From IMG/VR virus record IMGVR_UViG_2537562172_000006: a DNA stretch of 64,000 bases, one strand, 5' to 3'. The stretch's first letter is position 1. Each line of letters starts with the position of its first letter. This document shows positions 53,001 through 59,000 of the stretch, piece after piece. The position numbers were made by a program. Source of the stretch: a virus. Lineage: Duplodnaviria > Heunggongvirae > Uroviricota > Caudoviricetes.

Positions 53001-56000
53001 GGCATCCTTGGATCGGTGAACTTATACACGCCTCTACCCAGTCTTTTTATTGTCGCTCCAAAATCCTTTTTAATTAAGCGTCCTGTATAGTTACTCATAC
53101 TTTGGTTGTTATATCTCTCTCCAGTATCTTGATATATCTGGTTTATCCATTCTTTAACGCCAAACTCCTCATTTTTAAACTTTGACGCTGAATATAGAAT
53201 TTTTTTGTACACATCTGTTTTAGATGAACGAACAGCATCCTCATACTCTCTTCTTAGCCTACCTTCAGCATTCTCAACTGATTTTTCAATTGATTTATGG
53301 AAGATTTCAGAATTAATAACTTTGCTAGAATCAACAATGGCAGCCTCAGCAGCCTCCTTGCAAAGGAGGTGAGTAAAATATGGAAAGCCATTGCTTATAT
53401 CAACTATTTGATTTTTAATTTCATCGTCAAACCTTAGTCCTAATCCTTTTTCTCCCAGACTGATTATTTCTAACAGATGCTTTTCATCAACCCCTCCCAG
53501 ACAAACCTCATGCAGGCATCTGTTAACAGATTCATGCCCTGCCGTAAGGCTTTTACCATCCTTAGAAATTCCCACAAGCAATACTTTCAATTTCGAATTA
53601 AAATCGCTCAACTGCTTTATAAACTCTGCAACAGCTTTCTTTATATCGTCTTCTAATACATCAAACTCATCTATAACGAGAACCCCCTGAATTATTCCAA
53701 TAGTCGCTGCTGCCTTTCGAGGAGTTATTTCATCTCGTTCTATAGTTATTTTTTCTTCATAACCCACGTTACCAGTAAAGAAACTAAAAAACTTTGCAGA
53801 TAAGCCTGCCTTTATTACTTTCTCTTCCTTATACTTTTCCGGGTTTTGTGAGATAAATATTGCACATTCAGAGACGATATCTTTAAATTTAGTGTTAGTA
53901 TCACACTTCACATTAAAATACTCACCTAAAAGTACGTTGTATTGCCTGCCACCAATAACTGTAGCATTAGCTAATGAGCTCTTTCCGATTCCTCTATCAC
54001 CATATATCATACAATGCCTACCAGGAACCGTTAAATTATCTAAAATACTTCTCACCTCAGTATCTCTCCCCTTTAAATACTCAGGATTAGATATAGGAGT
54101 TGAAGGAGTATAATATTTATTCACATCATCTTTTTTTGCAAATTCTTGTGCATACTCTGCAAAAATATTCACATACACCTCCTTTTCATTAAAAATGATT
54201 AACCTGCCACTTTCTGTTTTGCAACCGTTACAAACTTCTTACGAGACTAAATATTTACGCATATCAAAGGAATGTTACGCGCGCTCATATCCATCCCACG
54301 CTATCCCATTTTACATGAACATAGGTAAAAACCCGCAACATCAGCATCAACAAAAAGCCTTACCCGTAGGCTTAATGTTTGGCTTGGCTGTAGCCTTACC
54401 GAACGCGCCGCTCACCGTCGTGGCCTGTCCGGTTTCTTCCACTGATACGGCCTCACATCATCATGCTGGTGGCGTTCCTGTTGCAGAACAACGGAAACAG
54501 GCGCTGAACACCTGTTAATTTTGCCTGCTGGTGGTCTGATTCCGGCAATGCTGCGGATCATCTCCAGCATATCGGCTTCGGTGATGGTCATGATTTACAC
54601 CTTAGGAAATCTTAGGGGGCTGGTTGACACTTTCCGGCTTAAGACCTTAATAAATCTTAATATCGCGGGTTGACACACTTGACACTTTTCGGGAAAAACC
54701 TTAACAAAACTTAACCTCCCCTGGCATTTCTAAGCATGGCAACTTGACACTTTTCGCGATTTTTTCGGCTTTTTGACGTGGTAAATCTGGCGCAAAGCCA
54801 GTAACGGCGGGGTTTACAGCGAGGTTGACACTTTTTCGCGTTCAGAGTGTAAAGTGTCAACCCGGCAGACGGCCTGACTTGACACTTTTCGCGAATTTTA
54901 CGGTCATTAATGGGATGATTTTTCCCACTCAGCCAGGGCGTTTAGTCCGGCTTCACTCCAGTTATCCAGCTCATCGGGACAATCACCTGCAACATAGCAG
55001 AGCTCACAACGCAGCATACGAATTGCCAGCCTGGCATTTTCCCGAAAATCATACTGCTCAAAGTAATATTGCCCAGCATAATCCTCAAGGCAGATAGCAC
55101 CATCATCAAGAAATTGCACTTCACAGCATAATTCCCCGGCTGCATCCTGCACACGCTGCTGTATGTCATCGTCCGTTACTGGTGCAGGGATTTTACCGTC
55201 TCTGGCCTTAACTGCTTTCCAGAACTCGCCCCACGTCATTTCCAGCGTTCTTTCTGGCCACATTTCAGAAACGGTGTCTTTCCCCTGTGCTGGTGGGCTG
55301 TTCCGCTGCTCTGTCGCCTCCACATCAATTTTTTTGCCAGACATGATCACTTCGCCTTTCTCGATCCAGTCGTAAACTGTCTGGCGGCTTACGCCTTTGT
55401 GTTTAGCATATTCTGCTTTACTCATTAGCATATTGCCCTCTCATGAAATAACGTTGTGTGCTGTCTGCCCCTGTGACTTCAGCTTGTTTTCAGCATATGC
55501 CTCGAACACCGTCACCCACGCATCACCATCGGCAGTAAGATACGCTCCGATGTGGCGAACGGACTTAACCAGAAATTTTCCGGTGAACGTGGTCGAGTTT
55601 TTGGAGATAACACTGGGCGCTGTAGTATTAGTCATGAGGATCGACGATGCTCCTGAAAACATTCCCTGAGGCAGTTCGATCACATCACTACACCGTATAT
55701 CTCCCCGCAACGGGCATTTAAAACTGACGGTAAAAGGCTTTATCCATGTTGGTTGGCCTATTAATTCATAAGGTTCAATTTTCTTTATTTTCCCCAGTTC
55801 CAGTGATGAATTATCATAAAGACGAATGCGATCTGGTAACATAATAATGCCTACCCCGCTATATCCTTTCTGACGAATAATCGCTTTCGATAAACTTCGC
55901 ACAGCCATAGCCAGCGAACCTATATCAAGGTAAACCAGTGGAATATCTTCAGGTAAAACCAGGTTATCACTGACCGAGGATTCAATAATTTTATCTGGAT

Positions 56001-59000
56001 ACGCCTGTTTCAAAACACGCGATAACACGTCTCCTAATTTTTCTCCCTGAAATCCAGTACCGCTAAATCTCACAGGAGAACCATCTTCTTTTTTTCTATA
56101 AACGGGGTTAACAACCAGATTCAACGTCTGGTTGGTGCCAATCCAGTTAGCATAAGCCATATAGACTTCACCATAGATAATCTCTCCCTGTTGATCTGGA
56201 TTAGCCAAAGGAAGTCCAGAAGCAAAGCCAGCAGTTAAGCTAACAATGCATCCGTTGAGATTTACACTTTGCTGTAACATCTCAATAGGTAAGCCATAAA
56301 TTGTCAGCATCGTTCCGGAACCAACAACATCCAGGCCGGTTACTTCAAAGTCAAATTCAACATGCAACCCACATCCTGGTGTTTCACTGGTATCAAAAGG
56401 CCCAATGGGGTTCCCATTGCTATCCACTGGCGGCTTACCAGTTTTAGGGTTAATAATTTCCAGTCGGTAATAACGCATTAGTAAACCTCGAACTGATTAG
56501 TACTTTCACGAAAAATGAGCTTTCCCGGAGCAAATGGAAGTGCCAGATTGATGTCGTAACCATCAGGGGAAGCAATCAGAGGCGTGTATACAATGACCTC
56601 ACCAGAACTGTTTTTCAGTTCCAGATAATAGCGATTCGCATACAGATTGAACGGAACACGGGCAAATAAAATTTCCCCTCCCATCCTGAATTTAAATTTG
56701 AAAGGTTTTTCCCCATCAGGTTTGAATGGTATAAAAGTATTCATACTCCAGACTCCTGCACAATTTGATTCTTGATACCTGACAATGATTGCCACTAAAT
56801 TATTTAGTGGCATGATTCACTCACTCTGTTTTTTCCAGTTGAGCCAGCCGCCCGGATATTTCTTCCAGTTTTTCCAGGGCTGGCTTGCAGGCCGCATCAA
56901 TAACTTCACGGACCATTCCGGCGAGCTGTTCTTCTTCTGTCGGCGTTGTTACTTCCACACCTGATGGTTTCCCGCCCTTATCCCATACGCCCAACGGTAC
57001 GAGCGCAACGTGATCGATAAGAAATGGCGTACCCTCAATGAAAAAATTGTCCTCGCCCATTACATCAGGAACTTCTGCCCCACCGGACGCACCACAAAAC
57101 ACAACCGACGGGCTGGTGGATACCTCCCCCCGTGCTTTCTGGATGTAATCGATGATTTCCTGCCCGTAAATCCGGCATACGCCCCACACCTCGTCACCGC
57201 GAATATACGGCAACATAACGGTGCCAATAATGCGCGACCGTTCGCCCACGTCTTCAAGGGTTTTGCTTTCGGGATGGTCGATAATGACGGGTACTCCGGC
57301 GCAACGTTCCAGGAACTGCGGATTGAGATAAGTTTGCGGTGAACGCCAGACAAATTCTTTTTCTTCGGCGCGGTAGGCCATTCCGGTTCCTGTGATACGC
57401 AGGTTAACCAGCCACATGTTGGAAAACTGATAAGGCGACGGTAGCTGTCCGTCCCGAATCTGCTTCGCCGCCTCAATTTCTGTTAAAAGCATAATGTTAT
57501 CCGGTTATAAGCAATAAGCCCCGCCAAATCCGGCAGGGCTGAAATCAGCACGTTTTTCATGCCCCCGAGAGGCTTGCAGTGTTAATTTTTACCAGGCGAC
57601 GGGGAGGAATTTTGAAAGCACTAAGCCAGTTATTCGGATCCCCCTGATATTCAGTAATCCGGCGTCCGGCTTCATCCATTCTTACGGTTTTACGCAAATA
57701 GCCCGGCGTATTTTCCACGGCCCACTGAACACTGTCTTTTGCAGCCTGGTAAATCTGATCTTCCAGCACCGCCAGCGTTGCAGAATCTGAAACGGAACGA
57801 ATATCCACATCACTGAATTTTTTAGCCAGCTTCTGTGCACCAATTAATGCACGCTTGCGGTAATCCATCGACTTTTCACCAGCAAACGGGGCTGGAGCGC
57901 GACGGCCCATACAACTGTATGCTGAATCCGCTTTGGCCTGGGCTTCTGCCAGTGAGGATTCATCTTCGACTGACGCGACGATGTTTTGATTCGCGTTGTC
58001 CTCATCTGCTTTTGTGAAATCCTGTGCGGGGATCGCATTCAGAATTTCGATAATCTCCTGCGGAGTGCTGCCCTGCGACTCTGACAGAGCGTTAACCACC
58101 TCCATCAGTTTTAATCGCAAATCTTCTTTGCTTGCTGGCATTGTTACCACCTCTCTTTTTTCACCAAAAAATCACGACCATCAGGCCGGACGTTCTACGG
58201 GATAAAGCGCCCGCTGCATTAAACGCCGGGCGACCTCATGAATGCTCGGAGCAATCCCCAGCGGAGAATTGCGGCGTTCCTCGTCCTGGATGCGCTGTAA
58301 TGCTTCAATCTGATCACGAGCGAGTAAAACGGGTTTCACGCTGGCTTTTCTCATAGTCATATCTCCTGAACAAAACAATGATTATGATTGCACAAACTGA
58401 AATGACGATCTACATCATTGCAATTTATGAAACAATAACGCATGATGATCGCGTTCTTCCCATTGACTTCAATCACCTGAAAAACAAAGCCCGCAACACT
58501 TCTGGCTGCGGGCTTTTTACTGGCACAAAAAAGCCGGGAAAAATCCCGGCCTCCGTCACTGACTGCAATTTTTCGATCCAGGGTATTTCCTGAATGCCTT
58601 ACCATTGGGCTGATGTAATCCCATCCCGGCATGTGCCCGGCTGATGGTTTCGCGCATCTCCCCGAAATTATCCTGCCTTGCTGGTGGGCGTGCTGCCTTG
58701 CGGATACATTCCGCGCGACGTTTTGCCGCCTGTTCCCGTGCCTTGTCATCATTCGCCAGCATGATGACCTCAGCCCACCGCGCCGCCGCTCTCCGGTACA
58801 GACCACGCGCTTCCAGTGCTTCCGCTTTGCTGTCGTGAATCATGCGCCTGTTTTCTCCTTTGCTACCCGGCGCTGACGTTTGCGCTTCTCATTCAGCGCC
58901 ACCAGCCGCGTTTCTGCGTCCTGTTGTTCCTGTGGTGTCACCTCGCCGCACGGCTGGCCTTTCAGGTCGTAGCGTACCCCACCAGCCATTAAGGCGCGGT

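Follow-up and report, generated by a model that had tools for sequence, protein, structure and literature searches.

Gram-negative PICIs (phage-inducible chromosomal islands) are phage satellites of 10-20 kb which carry an integrase gene and an AlpA gene, a Bro/AntA zone, a primase gene with iterons of a replication origin (ori), and a late zone (PMC10111431; Fillol-Salom et al. 2018, PMC6092414). The capture of helper late genes in these late zones, as well as the existence of helper-embedded PICIs (HE-PICIs), was published in 2023 (Tommasini, Mageeney and Williams, PMC10111431). Here, we analyse the late zone of Element 2, which lies at the end of a 64,000-nucleotide stretch of Caudoviricetes DNA (IMG/VR record IMGVR_UViG_2537562172_000006; the whole stretch is hereafter called the window). 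Element 2 is a Gram-negative PICI-type phage satellite with an estimated length of about 13.5 kb, located between smrA and abgR in its host, Escherichia coli, at a chromosomal site about 6 kb off the end of a prophage. It shares with published Gram-negative PICIs the above organization, late-zone genes that are homologous to, but diverged from, helper late genes, and relatives embedded in the large terminase gene (terL) or capsid gene with short attachment-site (att) cores. However, published cases centre on lambda-like siphophage helpers and on homologues of capsid genes, whereas the helper here has a myophage structural module, and the conserved captured unit is a restructured protease/scaffold pair, tail-core genes being swap-in cassettes. 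Unlike HE-PICIs, Element 2 is not inserted inside its helper, although some of its relatives are. Late-gene capture by satellites has thus already been described, and the protease/scaffold pair and tail-core cassettes are a new form of it: the text and text supplements of PMC10111431 do not mention DUF2213, scaffold, protease or tape measure, and a literature search for satellite protease, scaffold, hub or tape-measure genes of this kind found none.

Two other groups of satellites invite comparison. Capsid-forming PICIs (cf-PICIs) also carry phage-derived morphogenesis genes, but they possess a complete head and packaging set and steal tails only (bioRxiv 10.1101/2022.09.08.507074). Element 2, in contrast, has no capsid protein, portal, terminase (including the large subunit) or connector gene of its own, and does have tail-core genes. 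In SaPIbov5 (a Staphylococcus aureus pathogenicity island, SaPI), with its Ccm protein, and in PmCI172, a head-protein homologue, diverged from that of the helper, redirects capsid size or is suspected of doing so (PMC8569155; PMC6092414). In both of these satellites the protein concerned is a homologue of the major capsid protein, whereas Element 2 encodes protease and scaffold proteins and no capsid-protein homologue.

A prediction made from the sequence alone had proposed that Element 2 carries diverged copies of the baseplate hub, a small protein and the scaffold of the neighbouring prophage, the scaffold being split into two genes in swapped order, and that these copies could remodel helper capsids or tails. 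The late-zone features concerned and their prophage counterparts are the following.

54907..55431, minus strand: 174-aa protein with an N-terminal helix-turn-helix (HTH), last late-zone gene (Pfam HTH_17, weak; PHROG 57 'terminase small subunit', residues 1-42 only)
55441..56478, minus strand: satellite baseplate hub, 345 aa, gp27 / Mu gp44 / VgrG fold (BLASTP; PHROG 196 'baseplate hub', E=8e-37)
56478..56744, minus strand: small protein, 88 aa, co-captured with the hub (PHROG 8737, E=7e-36; RefSeq calls the 88-aa form)
56745..56792, minus strand: fossil 3' end of a phage gene, the one ahead of the small gene in the helper (homologue of 8890-9558), marking the capture junction
56821..57492, minus strand: satellite prohead protease, 223 aa, with a DUF2213/Pa193_gp24 domain and a 35-aa C-terminal helix (the 'N-terminal half' of the original prediction)
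57517..57540, minus strand: stem-loop, GC-rich and followed by a U-rich tail, that separates the scaffold gene from the protease gene (10 pairs in the terminator scan, including 7 GC)
57557..58150, minus strand: satellite scaffold-only protein, 194-197 aa (the predicted 'C-terminal part', hereafter C-part; BLASTP; PHROG 6216, positions 402-545)
58181..58378, minus strand: small conserved gene, 57-65 aa, also called as 57 aa (the 57-aa gene below), always ahead of the module (68-73% identical in Klebsiella, Pantoea, Citrobacter and Enterobacter satellites)
7620..8893, minus strand: helper hub (7620-8627) and small gene (8627-8893), counterparts of the hub cassette
9562..12370, minus strand: helper tape-measure-like SLT-domain protein (9562-11679) and, upstream, a putative chaperone of 209 aa (11741-12370), counterparts of the cassette of sister satellites
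18136..19428, minus strand: helper prohead protease-scaffold fusion, 430 aa, to which the two satellite head genes correspond

BLASTP bears out the four predicted matches at the coordinates proposed. The hub (55441-56478) is 73.1% identical to that of the prophage (7620-8627) over 331 aa (E=0), and the small protein, in its longer form (56478-56813), is 78.2% identical to the 8627-8893 product over 87 aa (E=5e-49). The product of 56821-57492 matches residues 3-228 of the 18136-19428 product (53.9% identity over 230 aa, E=3e-84), while the 57557-58150 product aligns, through its residues 42-191, with residues 280-423 of that protein (59.3% identity over 150 aa, E=5e-57); the element lacks any equivalent of prophage residues 229-279, a stretch of charged AEEKAKADE repeats. 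The two parts are indeed separate genes and, as both are on the minus strand, the C-part, which has the higher coordinates, is transcribed before the N-terminal half. The hub and small gene are in the same order as their prophage counterparts (7620-8893), as had been predicted.

The four open reading frames (ORFs) located at 55441-58150 are intact, with no frameshift and no internal stop, and they are annotated likewise by RefSeq in an element that is 99% identical. Nucleotide identity between element and prophage copies is only 65-72%, and the ratio of nonsynonymous to synonymous substitution rates (dN/dS, Nei-Gojobori) is 0.01-0.21, with dS saturated; in the wider comparison of satellite and helper copies it is 0.05-0.24, again with saturated dS. 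These genes are therefore neither recent duplicates, in agreement with the divergence seen in the original prediction, nor decaying remnants: the nonsense or frameshift decay expected of pseudogenes is not present. The captured genes are under purifying selection, including during their residence in satellites.

The prophage counterpart of the two head genes is not the plain scaffold that had been proposed. Its scaffold part stands, but the whole protein is really a prohead protease-scaffold fusion, whose N-terminal half is a protease domain with conserved candidate catalytic residues. It is a DUF2213 protein (Pfam PF09979, now Pa193_gp24), and it matches PHROG 6216 and, weakly, head-maturation-protease PHROGs. 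The satellite protease has the fold shared by T4 gp21 and the herpesvirus protease (assemblin). Residues H73, S125, S127 and H161 are invariant in 25 sequences comprising satellite, phage and NUDIX-fused forms, and conservation and fold together make H73, S127 and H161 candidate catalytic residues. Searches of the PDB by sequence with the helper protein, the hub, the small protein, the 174-aa HTH protein and a protease alignment profile returned nothing useful.

In other bacteria, the DUF2213 protease domain also occurs fused to an N-terminal NUDIX hydrolase domain, without the scaffold C-terminal domain (proteins P0039-P0057). Some of the satellite C-part and protease genes go by the name 'NUDIX hydrolase' in RefSeq and UniRef, others by that of 'TolA', RefSeq also using 'hypothetical'. 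These names look like annotation errors, and the first one probably stems from the existence of the DUF2213-NUDIX fusion.

The scaffold-only protein, for which the ATG at 58141 is a likelier start than the GTG at 58150, consists of a satellite-specific N-terminal domain of about 60 aa, conserved among the satellite C-parts and lacking in helpers, followed by the helper C-terminal domain (about 135-150 residues). In an alignment of the window protein, six other satellite copies and three helper proteins, these ~60 satellite-specific residues stand where the helper fusion has a charged linker of about 110 residues. No significant similarity was found between the N-terminal 62 aa of the C-part and the helper linker by local alignment against shuffled sequences; an origin of this N-terminus from the linker helix (KEDL..VVNAL) through a nested internal start was considered and dropped, as 213 of 2000 shuffles scored as well. 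The C-terminal ~150 aa, in contrast, share 59% identity with the helper protein, and all satellite copies retain this domain. [quoted passage not shown] By analogy with the satellite scaffold CpmB, discussed below, we infer that the C-terminal domain would be the part that binds the capsid protein.

The stem-loop between the scaffold and protease genes has an equivalent, with a different stem sequence, at the same position in all eight satellites compared, which come from several genera (window, L004, L005, L007, L008, L011, L013 and L108); this conservation is one of per-sequence folds, stems and loops varying in length. The hairpin may be a terminator or attenuator setting the scaffold:protease ratio. 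If it attenuates transcription and keeps the protease scarce relative to the scaffold, the 'swapped' gene order would have a functional logic.

The split and the order of the two genes, noticed in the original prediction, are not a rearrangement of the local prophage gene: they belong to a conserved layout. Short DUF2213 proteins of 221-229 aa, 55-99% identical to that of the window, are found in E. coli, Salmonella, Citrobacter, Enterobacter, Pantoea and Klebsiella, and in every context examined the 57-aa gene, the C-part gene (~190 aa) and the short protease gene follow one another in this order within a PICI backbone. The conserved late-zone core thus comprises the 57-aa gene, the scaffold-only gene, the terminator-like hairpin, the protease-only gene, and an HTH or small terminase (TerS)-type gene. 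In neighbour-joining trees, satellite C-terminal domains are monophyletic and apart from the helper clade, and satellite protease domains likewise form one clade, except for a Klebsiella copy which falls beside the helper clade; the split between satellite and helper clades holds even for a satellite and a helper located side by side. The order of scaffold gene, hairpin and protease gene is ancestral in a satellite lineage present in at least six enterobacterial genera.

The last gene of this core differs between satellites. The 174-aa HTH protein is 58-88% identical in L002 (the element of E. coli ETEC1716) and L007, and in other relatives its gene alternates with an Sf6-type small terminase gene accompanied by a gene for a 275-311-aa protein. 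Two identities were rejected for the 174-aa protein: it shows no similarity to the helper TerS (363 aa), nor to RppA or RppC, the latter of solved structure, PDB chains at E<=1 being chance matches only. Rpp proteins are 144-153 aa long (PMC6739421).

Satellites of this family also possess a conserved protein of 291-295 aa, encoded between AlpA and DUF4222, which has only a faint precomputed match to an integrase family. This protein marks a much larger set of enterobacterial PICIs, with 69 IMG/VR loci (L096-L164). With the query proteins tried, no protease, scaffold or hub module was found in 63 of these; a gene similar to that of the 174-aa HTH protein (33-63% identical) is present in about 55. 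The absence of the module from 63 of the 69 loci suggests that it is specific to a sub-lineage exploiting helpers similar to phage Rac-SA53.

The original prediction treated the scaffold and hub copies together. All four genes are homologous to prophage genes, but the hub and small genes have a separate history: they are an optional, later-captured cassette in the interval that separates the protease gene from the HTH gene. The assignment of the hub holds, as judged from its predicted structure. The AlphaFold model has a predicted local distance difference test (pLDDT) score of 83, and its Foldseek matches include PhiTE, Bas63, E217 (8eon_E) and Pa193 (9b45_d) baseplate chains, with probability 1.00 and E-values between 9e-15 and 1e-11. 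Mu gp44 (1wru), the R2 pyocin hub and VgrG are matched as well. In the helper, the hub gene follows the tape-measure gene and precedes the spike and wedge genes, whereas the satellite copy is outside such a context.

The edges of the cassette are still visible. The small-protein ORF extends over 56478-56813, with a probable true start at M24 (56744), and upstream of this start the nucleotide alignment runs for about 47 nt into helper positions 8894-8947, the remnant ...SGIKNQIVQESGV* matching the helper ...SGIKNQVVQEFGIGL*. At the other edge, homology stops four codons short of the stop codon of the helper hub, and the C-terminus of the satellite hub differs from that of the prophage hub, being 10 aa longer and including the satellite-specific peptide KLKSQGQTAHNVIS. 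The fossil junction and the homology edges indicate that the cassette was excised from a phage tail operon. Both this junction and the novel hub C-terminus recur in satellite L179, whose hub is only 90% identical to that of the window; dN/dS between the two satellites is 0.15 for the hub and 0.14 for the small protein. A junction shared by hubs that have diverged to this extent under such a low dN/dS points to a single capture, since kept by selection within satellites. The closest phage hub found, in a Cronobacter prophage, is 80% identical, and the window hub nests among phage hubs in a neighbour-joining tree without bootstrap.

The slot between the protease and HTH genes is exchanged cleanly, as its flanks are 92-97% identical between the window and ETEC1716. 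In ETEC1716, it contains a 205-aa protein, 90% identical to the putative tail chaperone of the helper, and a 679-aa SLT-domain protein, 73.5% identical to the helper tape-measure-like protein (705 aa). The 'SLT domain' label of the latter comes from RefSeq and precomputed Pfam annotation; our own Pfam scan of the helper tape-measure-like protein gave no match. The slot is empty in most E. coli relatives and in 11 of 17 IMG/VR satellites, the others carrying the chaperone and tape-measure-like genes (four satellites) or the small and hub genes (two satellites). In addition, satellites from other genera carry an older pair of genes ahead of the C-part, encoding a tape-measure-like protein (~633 aa, 38% identical to that of the helper) and a hub (~340 aa, ~50%). 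Together with the cassettes, this older pair shows that tail-core genes were acquired at least twice.

The original proposal that Element 2 is a satellite is upheld by its PICI architecture, its att repeats, its ori iterons, and the strong co-occurrence of such elements with this type of prophage. The features outside the captured genes are listed below.

52354..52378, plus strand: left attachment-site core AATTAACTACACCATTAACTACACC, the right copy being past the window end
52973..54178, minus strand: STAND-type NTPase, 401 aa, accessory gene (Pfam nSTAND1, E=2e-9; weak PADLOC PDC-S59 match)
54594..54903: repeat array TTGACACTTT(T/C)CG, at least six copies in both orientations, directly downstream of the 174-aa HTH gene
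58486..58516, minus strand: terminator-like hairpin, 12-bp stem and T tract, between perC and the late module (terminator scan)
58556..61847, minus strand: satellite backbone, with PerC, ProQ/FinO, ori iterons, D5_N/Pox_D5 primase and DUF4222 (Pfam, iterons, RefSeq annotation of L001 and L002)
59389-59743: ori iterons AACTGTCTAC, at least eight copies
59755-61560: D5_N/Pox_D5 primase (Pfam)
63200..64000, minus strand: AntA/Bro-type gene, truncated by the window end (Pfam AntA, E=2.5e-23)

As the window ends within the element, two close relatives define its complete organization: a 99%-identical element (L001) and the element of E. coli ETEC1716 (L002), whose backbone is 97% identical over window positions 56811-64000. 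According to RefSeq annotation, gene order in these 97-99% identical elements is integrase, HTH, AntA, Icd-like, DUF4222, primase, ProQ/FinO and PerC, then the 57-aa gene, C-part, DUF2213 gene, cassette and 174-aa HTH protein. The four-zone organization of PICIs is therefore recovered. The Bro/AntA zone followed by a primase with ori iterons is present in Element 2 itself, and an integrase with an AlpA-type gene at one end is present in L002, where an HTH gene at the AlpA position, the integrase gene and attR lie downstream of AntA, and in all distant relatives (int with HTH_17/Phage_AlpA); the window copy of this end is cut off. Size falls within the 10-20 kb range and att direct repeats flank the element, their spacing being taken from L002, where 26-nt repeats occur 13,169 bp apart. 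The att core occurs once in the window, against 0 expected, and homology to the empty-flank side stops at about 52516. The 17 IMG/VR satellites have an identical gene order and are contigs of 10-16 kb, apart from one at the end of a 57-kb contig; elements of this size are found repeatedly, at several chromosomal sites and in many genomes.

The first 46 kb of the window are a full-length lambdoid prophage at the Rac site (ttcA/intR/recE), with a myophage structural module of the PB1/E217-like type, similar to phage Rac-SA53; its capsid gene is at 16483-17511. The late-zone genes derive from the structural module of such Rac-SA53-like temperate myophages. A satellite-type C-part is present in 35 of 5426 complete E. 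coli genomes, 60 more having the helper-type gene only, while the helper terL is present in 86 and the phage-type hub in 89. The helper prophage was found in at least 12 of 22 sampled satellite-bearing complete genomes, against 86/5426 overall (0.35 expected; Fisher p=6e-17). Satellites are 13.2-14.5 kb long and helpers 44-55 kb (52,291 bp for phage Rac-SA53), giving a size ratio of ~0.27, which resembles that of P4 to P2 and of SaPI1 to 80alpha.

Some relatives are physically inserted in helper genes, in line with published HE-PICIs (PMC10111431), here in helpers of the myophage type. At locus L108 (6140-20665), the helper major capsid gene is interrupted at codons ~17-25 by a satellite of 14,451 bp, with the att core TATCATGCAGTAC and both junctions seen. 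In L005 (12079-12449) and L008 (13006-13375), which are Pantoea and Citrobacter loci, the satellite abuts the last 111 codons of the helper terL; the breakpoint (terL nt 993) is the same in both, as seen from the right-hand junction only. Among helper-type prophages of complete E. coli genomes, terL is intact in 85 of 86, with no terL-embedded copy found in E. coli, and a TerL scan of viral contigs recovered intact terL genes only.

Up to five copies of the C-domain gene were found per genome (ETEC4090 and ETEC1747), suggesting that several satellites of the family and one or two helpers can share a chromosome. Besides, the helper prophage is present both in E. coli W and in a record with the label 'DH5alpha' (NZ_CP026085.1), suggesting that the strain was mislabelled.

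How might the captured genes serve the satellite? The original prediction invoked SaPI CpmB and P4 Sid. In SaPI1, CpmB (with CpmA) is an internal scaffold which competes with the 80alpha scaffold for its site on the capsid protein, yielding small capsids (Dearborn et al. 2017, PMC5644958). The analogy is reasonable for the C-part, an internal scaffold-like protein encoded by a satellite and sharing the C-terminal domain of the helper scaffold (59% identity), which suggests CpmB-like competition; the ratio of satellite to helper genome size is moreover ~0.3 in both systems. There are nevertheless differences. No sequence relationship was found, or expected, between CpmB and the C-part, which is a true homologue of the helper protein over ~150 residues, and here the helper scaffold is fused to a protease, the satellite adding a separate protease gene and the change in capsid size being hypothetical. 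The parallel with P4 Sid is poor, as Sid is an external scaffold without homology to helper proteins, and Pfam and PHROG scans of the late-zone proteins of Element 2 gave no match to the Sid, Psu or Delta families of P4-like satellites. P2, the helper of P4, also has a protease-scaffold fusion (gpO), and P4 makes small capsids from helper proteins.

Remodelling of helper capsids or tails by the captured genes is plausible. Upon helper induction, the satellite scaffold would compete with the helper protease-scaffold for the capsid protein through their common C-terminal domain, and its shorter, different spacer would yield, as with SaPI1 CpmB, a smaller procapsid fit for a genome ~0.27 times that of the helper. 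A scaffold-only protein which keeps the helper C-terminal domain behind a shorter and unrelated spacer is a natural candidate for such a task. The separate protease, made in smaller amounts owing to the hairpin, would then mature satellite procapsids; it would be needed because the satellite scaffold, unlike that of the helper, has no tethered protease. Finally, the hub, or the tape-measure-like protein in sister elements, would replace the helper allele in the central hub-tape-measure complex of the tail and thereby change DNA delivery. The benefit of these cassettes could be altered entry, bypass of exclusion or plain interference; our best guess would be a modified entry, or an escape from exclusion in helper lysogens.

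We give an even chance to this explanation as a whole, that is, a satellite late zone whose captured genes reshape helper particles. Several points weigh against it. The case for small capsids comes solely from genome size and scaffold architecture, and the catalytic triad of the satellite protease from conservation and fold; entry into procapsids is hard to account for in a protease devoid of the capsid-binding C-terminal domain. Full-size capsids package EcCICFT073, the E. coli PICI studied in most detail (PMC6092414), and the capsid gene of a PICI is dispensable for transfer (PMC10111431). The hub cassette is rare (three of 5426 complete E. coli genomes and two of 17 IMG/VR satellites) and hence dispensable for the satellite life cycle, so that its adaptive value is a guess, and the three complete genomes that carry it are without the helper prophage. 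Lastly, the trees on which the satellite clades are defined are neighbour-joining trees without bootstrap support.

A bolder version, which we hold to be quite unlikely, is that the lineage re-tools both ends of the virion, combining small heads (made with the truncated helper-derived scaffold and the satellite's own protease) with a swapped tail injection core, and that this swap lets particles deliver DNA where the helper cannot. Possible targets would be lysogens that exclude the tape-measure/hub allele of the helper, or cells lacking its entry factor. To our knowledge, no satellite that replaces tail-core components has been described.

Alternatively, interference may be the sole effect of the captured genes. 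Acting as dominant-negative 'poison' subunits, the free C-domain protein and variant hub would then block the assembly of helper capsids and tails and lower helper yield, as satellite interference or as population-level defence, with no special satellite particles. Such an explanation, which we consider unlikely, would fit the frequent interference of satellites with helper assembly (PMC6092414; PMC6739421), the retention by the C-part of exactly the helper C-terminal domain without the protease, and the central divergence of the hub (identity of ~55% for residues 126-250 and of 85-90% for the two ends). However, a pure poison needs no conserved, apparently catalytic protease gene beside it in every genus, and blocking tails would be self-defeating for a satellite that depends on helper capsids and tails. 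Furthermore, no PADLOC defence family was matched among the four captured genes, and, in the passages of the literature consulted, known tail-assembly inhibitors (Tai) are not presented as homologous to structural proteins of tails. An identity of the captured genes with Tai proteins was itself rejected, no relationship being apparent with the proteins as described there.

The captured genes may also be transient cargo, that is, by-products of late-zone capture and loss, acting as plain spare copies (backups or adaptors to the helper range) with no remodelling. Gram-negative PICIs do capture helper late genes and then lose most of them (PMC10111431), and the hub cassette, with its fossil capture junction, its optional presence and its position among phage hubs, conforms to this pattern. 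The scaffold/protease pair does not: it has been restructured (split, with a new N-terminal domain, a lost linker and an added hairpin), and it is cross-genus and largely monophyletic. Helper-embedded relatives interrupt either terL or the capsid gene, and neither the protease-scaffold gene nor the hub gene, so that the idea of a backup for the interrupted gene does not fit. In addition, purifying selection maintains the hub cassette as well as the tape-measure-like one within satellites, and the older, deeply diverged pair of tape-measure-like and hub genes is fixed in the module of other genera. Transient cargo thus seems to us an improbable account of the late zone. As for a degraded related prophage, of which the four ORFs would be leftovers, homology to prophage structural genes and the proximity of another prophage are outweighed by the absence of stops and frameshifts, the low dN/dS (0.05-0.24), a PICI backbone with its own integrase, primase, ori and att sites, and the recurrence of the same 10-16-kb element at several chromosomal sites in many genomes, which make this last possibility extremely remote.

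If captured genes do reshape helper particles, the module bears on a process that is still largely unknown, the control of capsid size by Gram-negative PICIs, whose capsid-size genes were not identified in the first description of these elements in 2018 (PMC6092414). A scaffold-only protein, with the helper C-terminal domain and a shortened, non-homologous spacer, accompanied by a detached prohead protease, is a concrete candidate size determinant in at least six genera. No characterised satellite of Rac-site temperate myophages was found in the literature. The interchangeable hub and tape-measure-like cassettes show that satellites sample tail-core genes and keep them under selection; satellites may tune DNA delivery besides packaging. 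Satellite-finding tools and annotations could also be improved, given the 'hypothetical', 'NUDIX hydrolase' and 'TolA' labels currently attached to these genes.

Three other features of the element deserve mention. The terminator-like hairpin at 58486..58516 suggests that the late module is a separately controlled transcription unit. The array located at 54594-54903 is a candidate packaging or regulatory site of the satellite: a 15-mer of TTGACACTTT(T/C)CG has three exact matches, all within the array, against 0.12 expected, and the motif occurs nowhere else in the window, prophage included, while the array is also present in L002. The STAND-type NTPase gene is exclusive to this satellite copy, as it belongs to a 1.8-kb att-proximal insert (52517-54348) missing from L001 and L002, and it may be anti-phage defence cargo.

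The prophage itself provides two observations. It encodes a pertussis-toxin-S1/scabin-like ADP-ribosyltransferase (27751-28476, within 27258-28476, minus strand), and the RefSeq annotation of the related ETEC4067 prophage places the B subunit of a subtilase-family AB5 toxin beside such a transferase. The adjoining window ORF (27258-27740) has no Pfam match; if it corresponds to the ETEC4067 B subunit, the helper would carry an AB5-type toxin moron beside its lysis genes. Finally, RefSeq names the product of helper gene 20187-21623 (minus strand) 'anti-CBASS protein Acb1 family protein', but it matches Pfam Phage_portal_3 and is encoded at the position of the portal gene, so that the RefSeq name is probably wrong.

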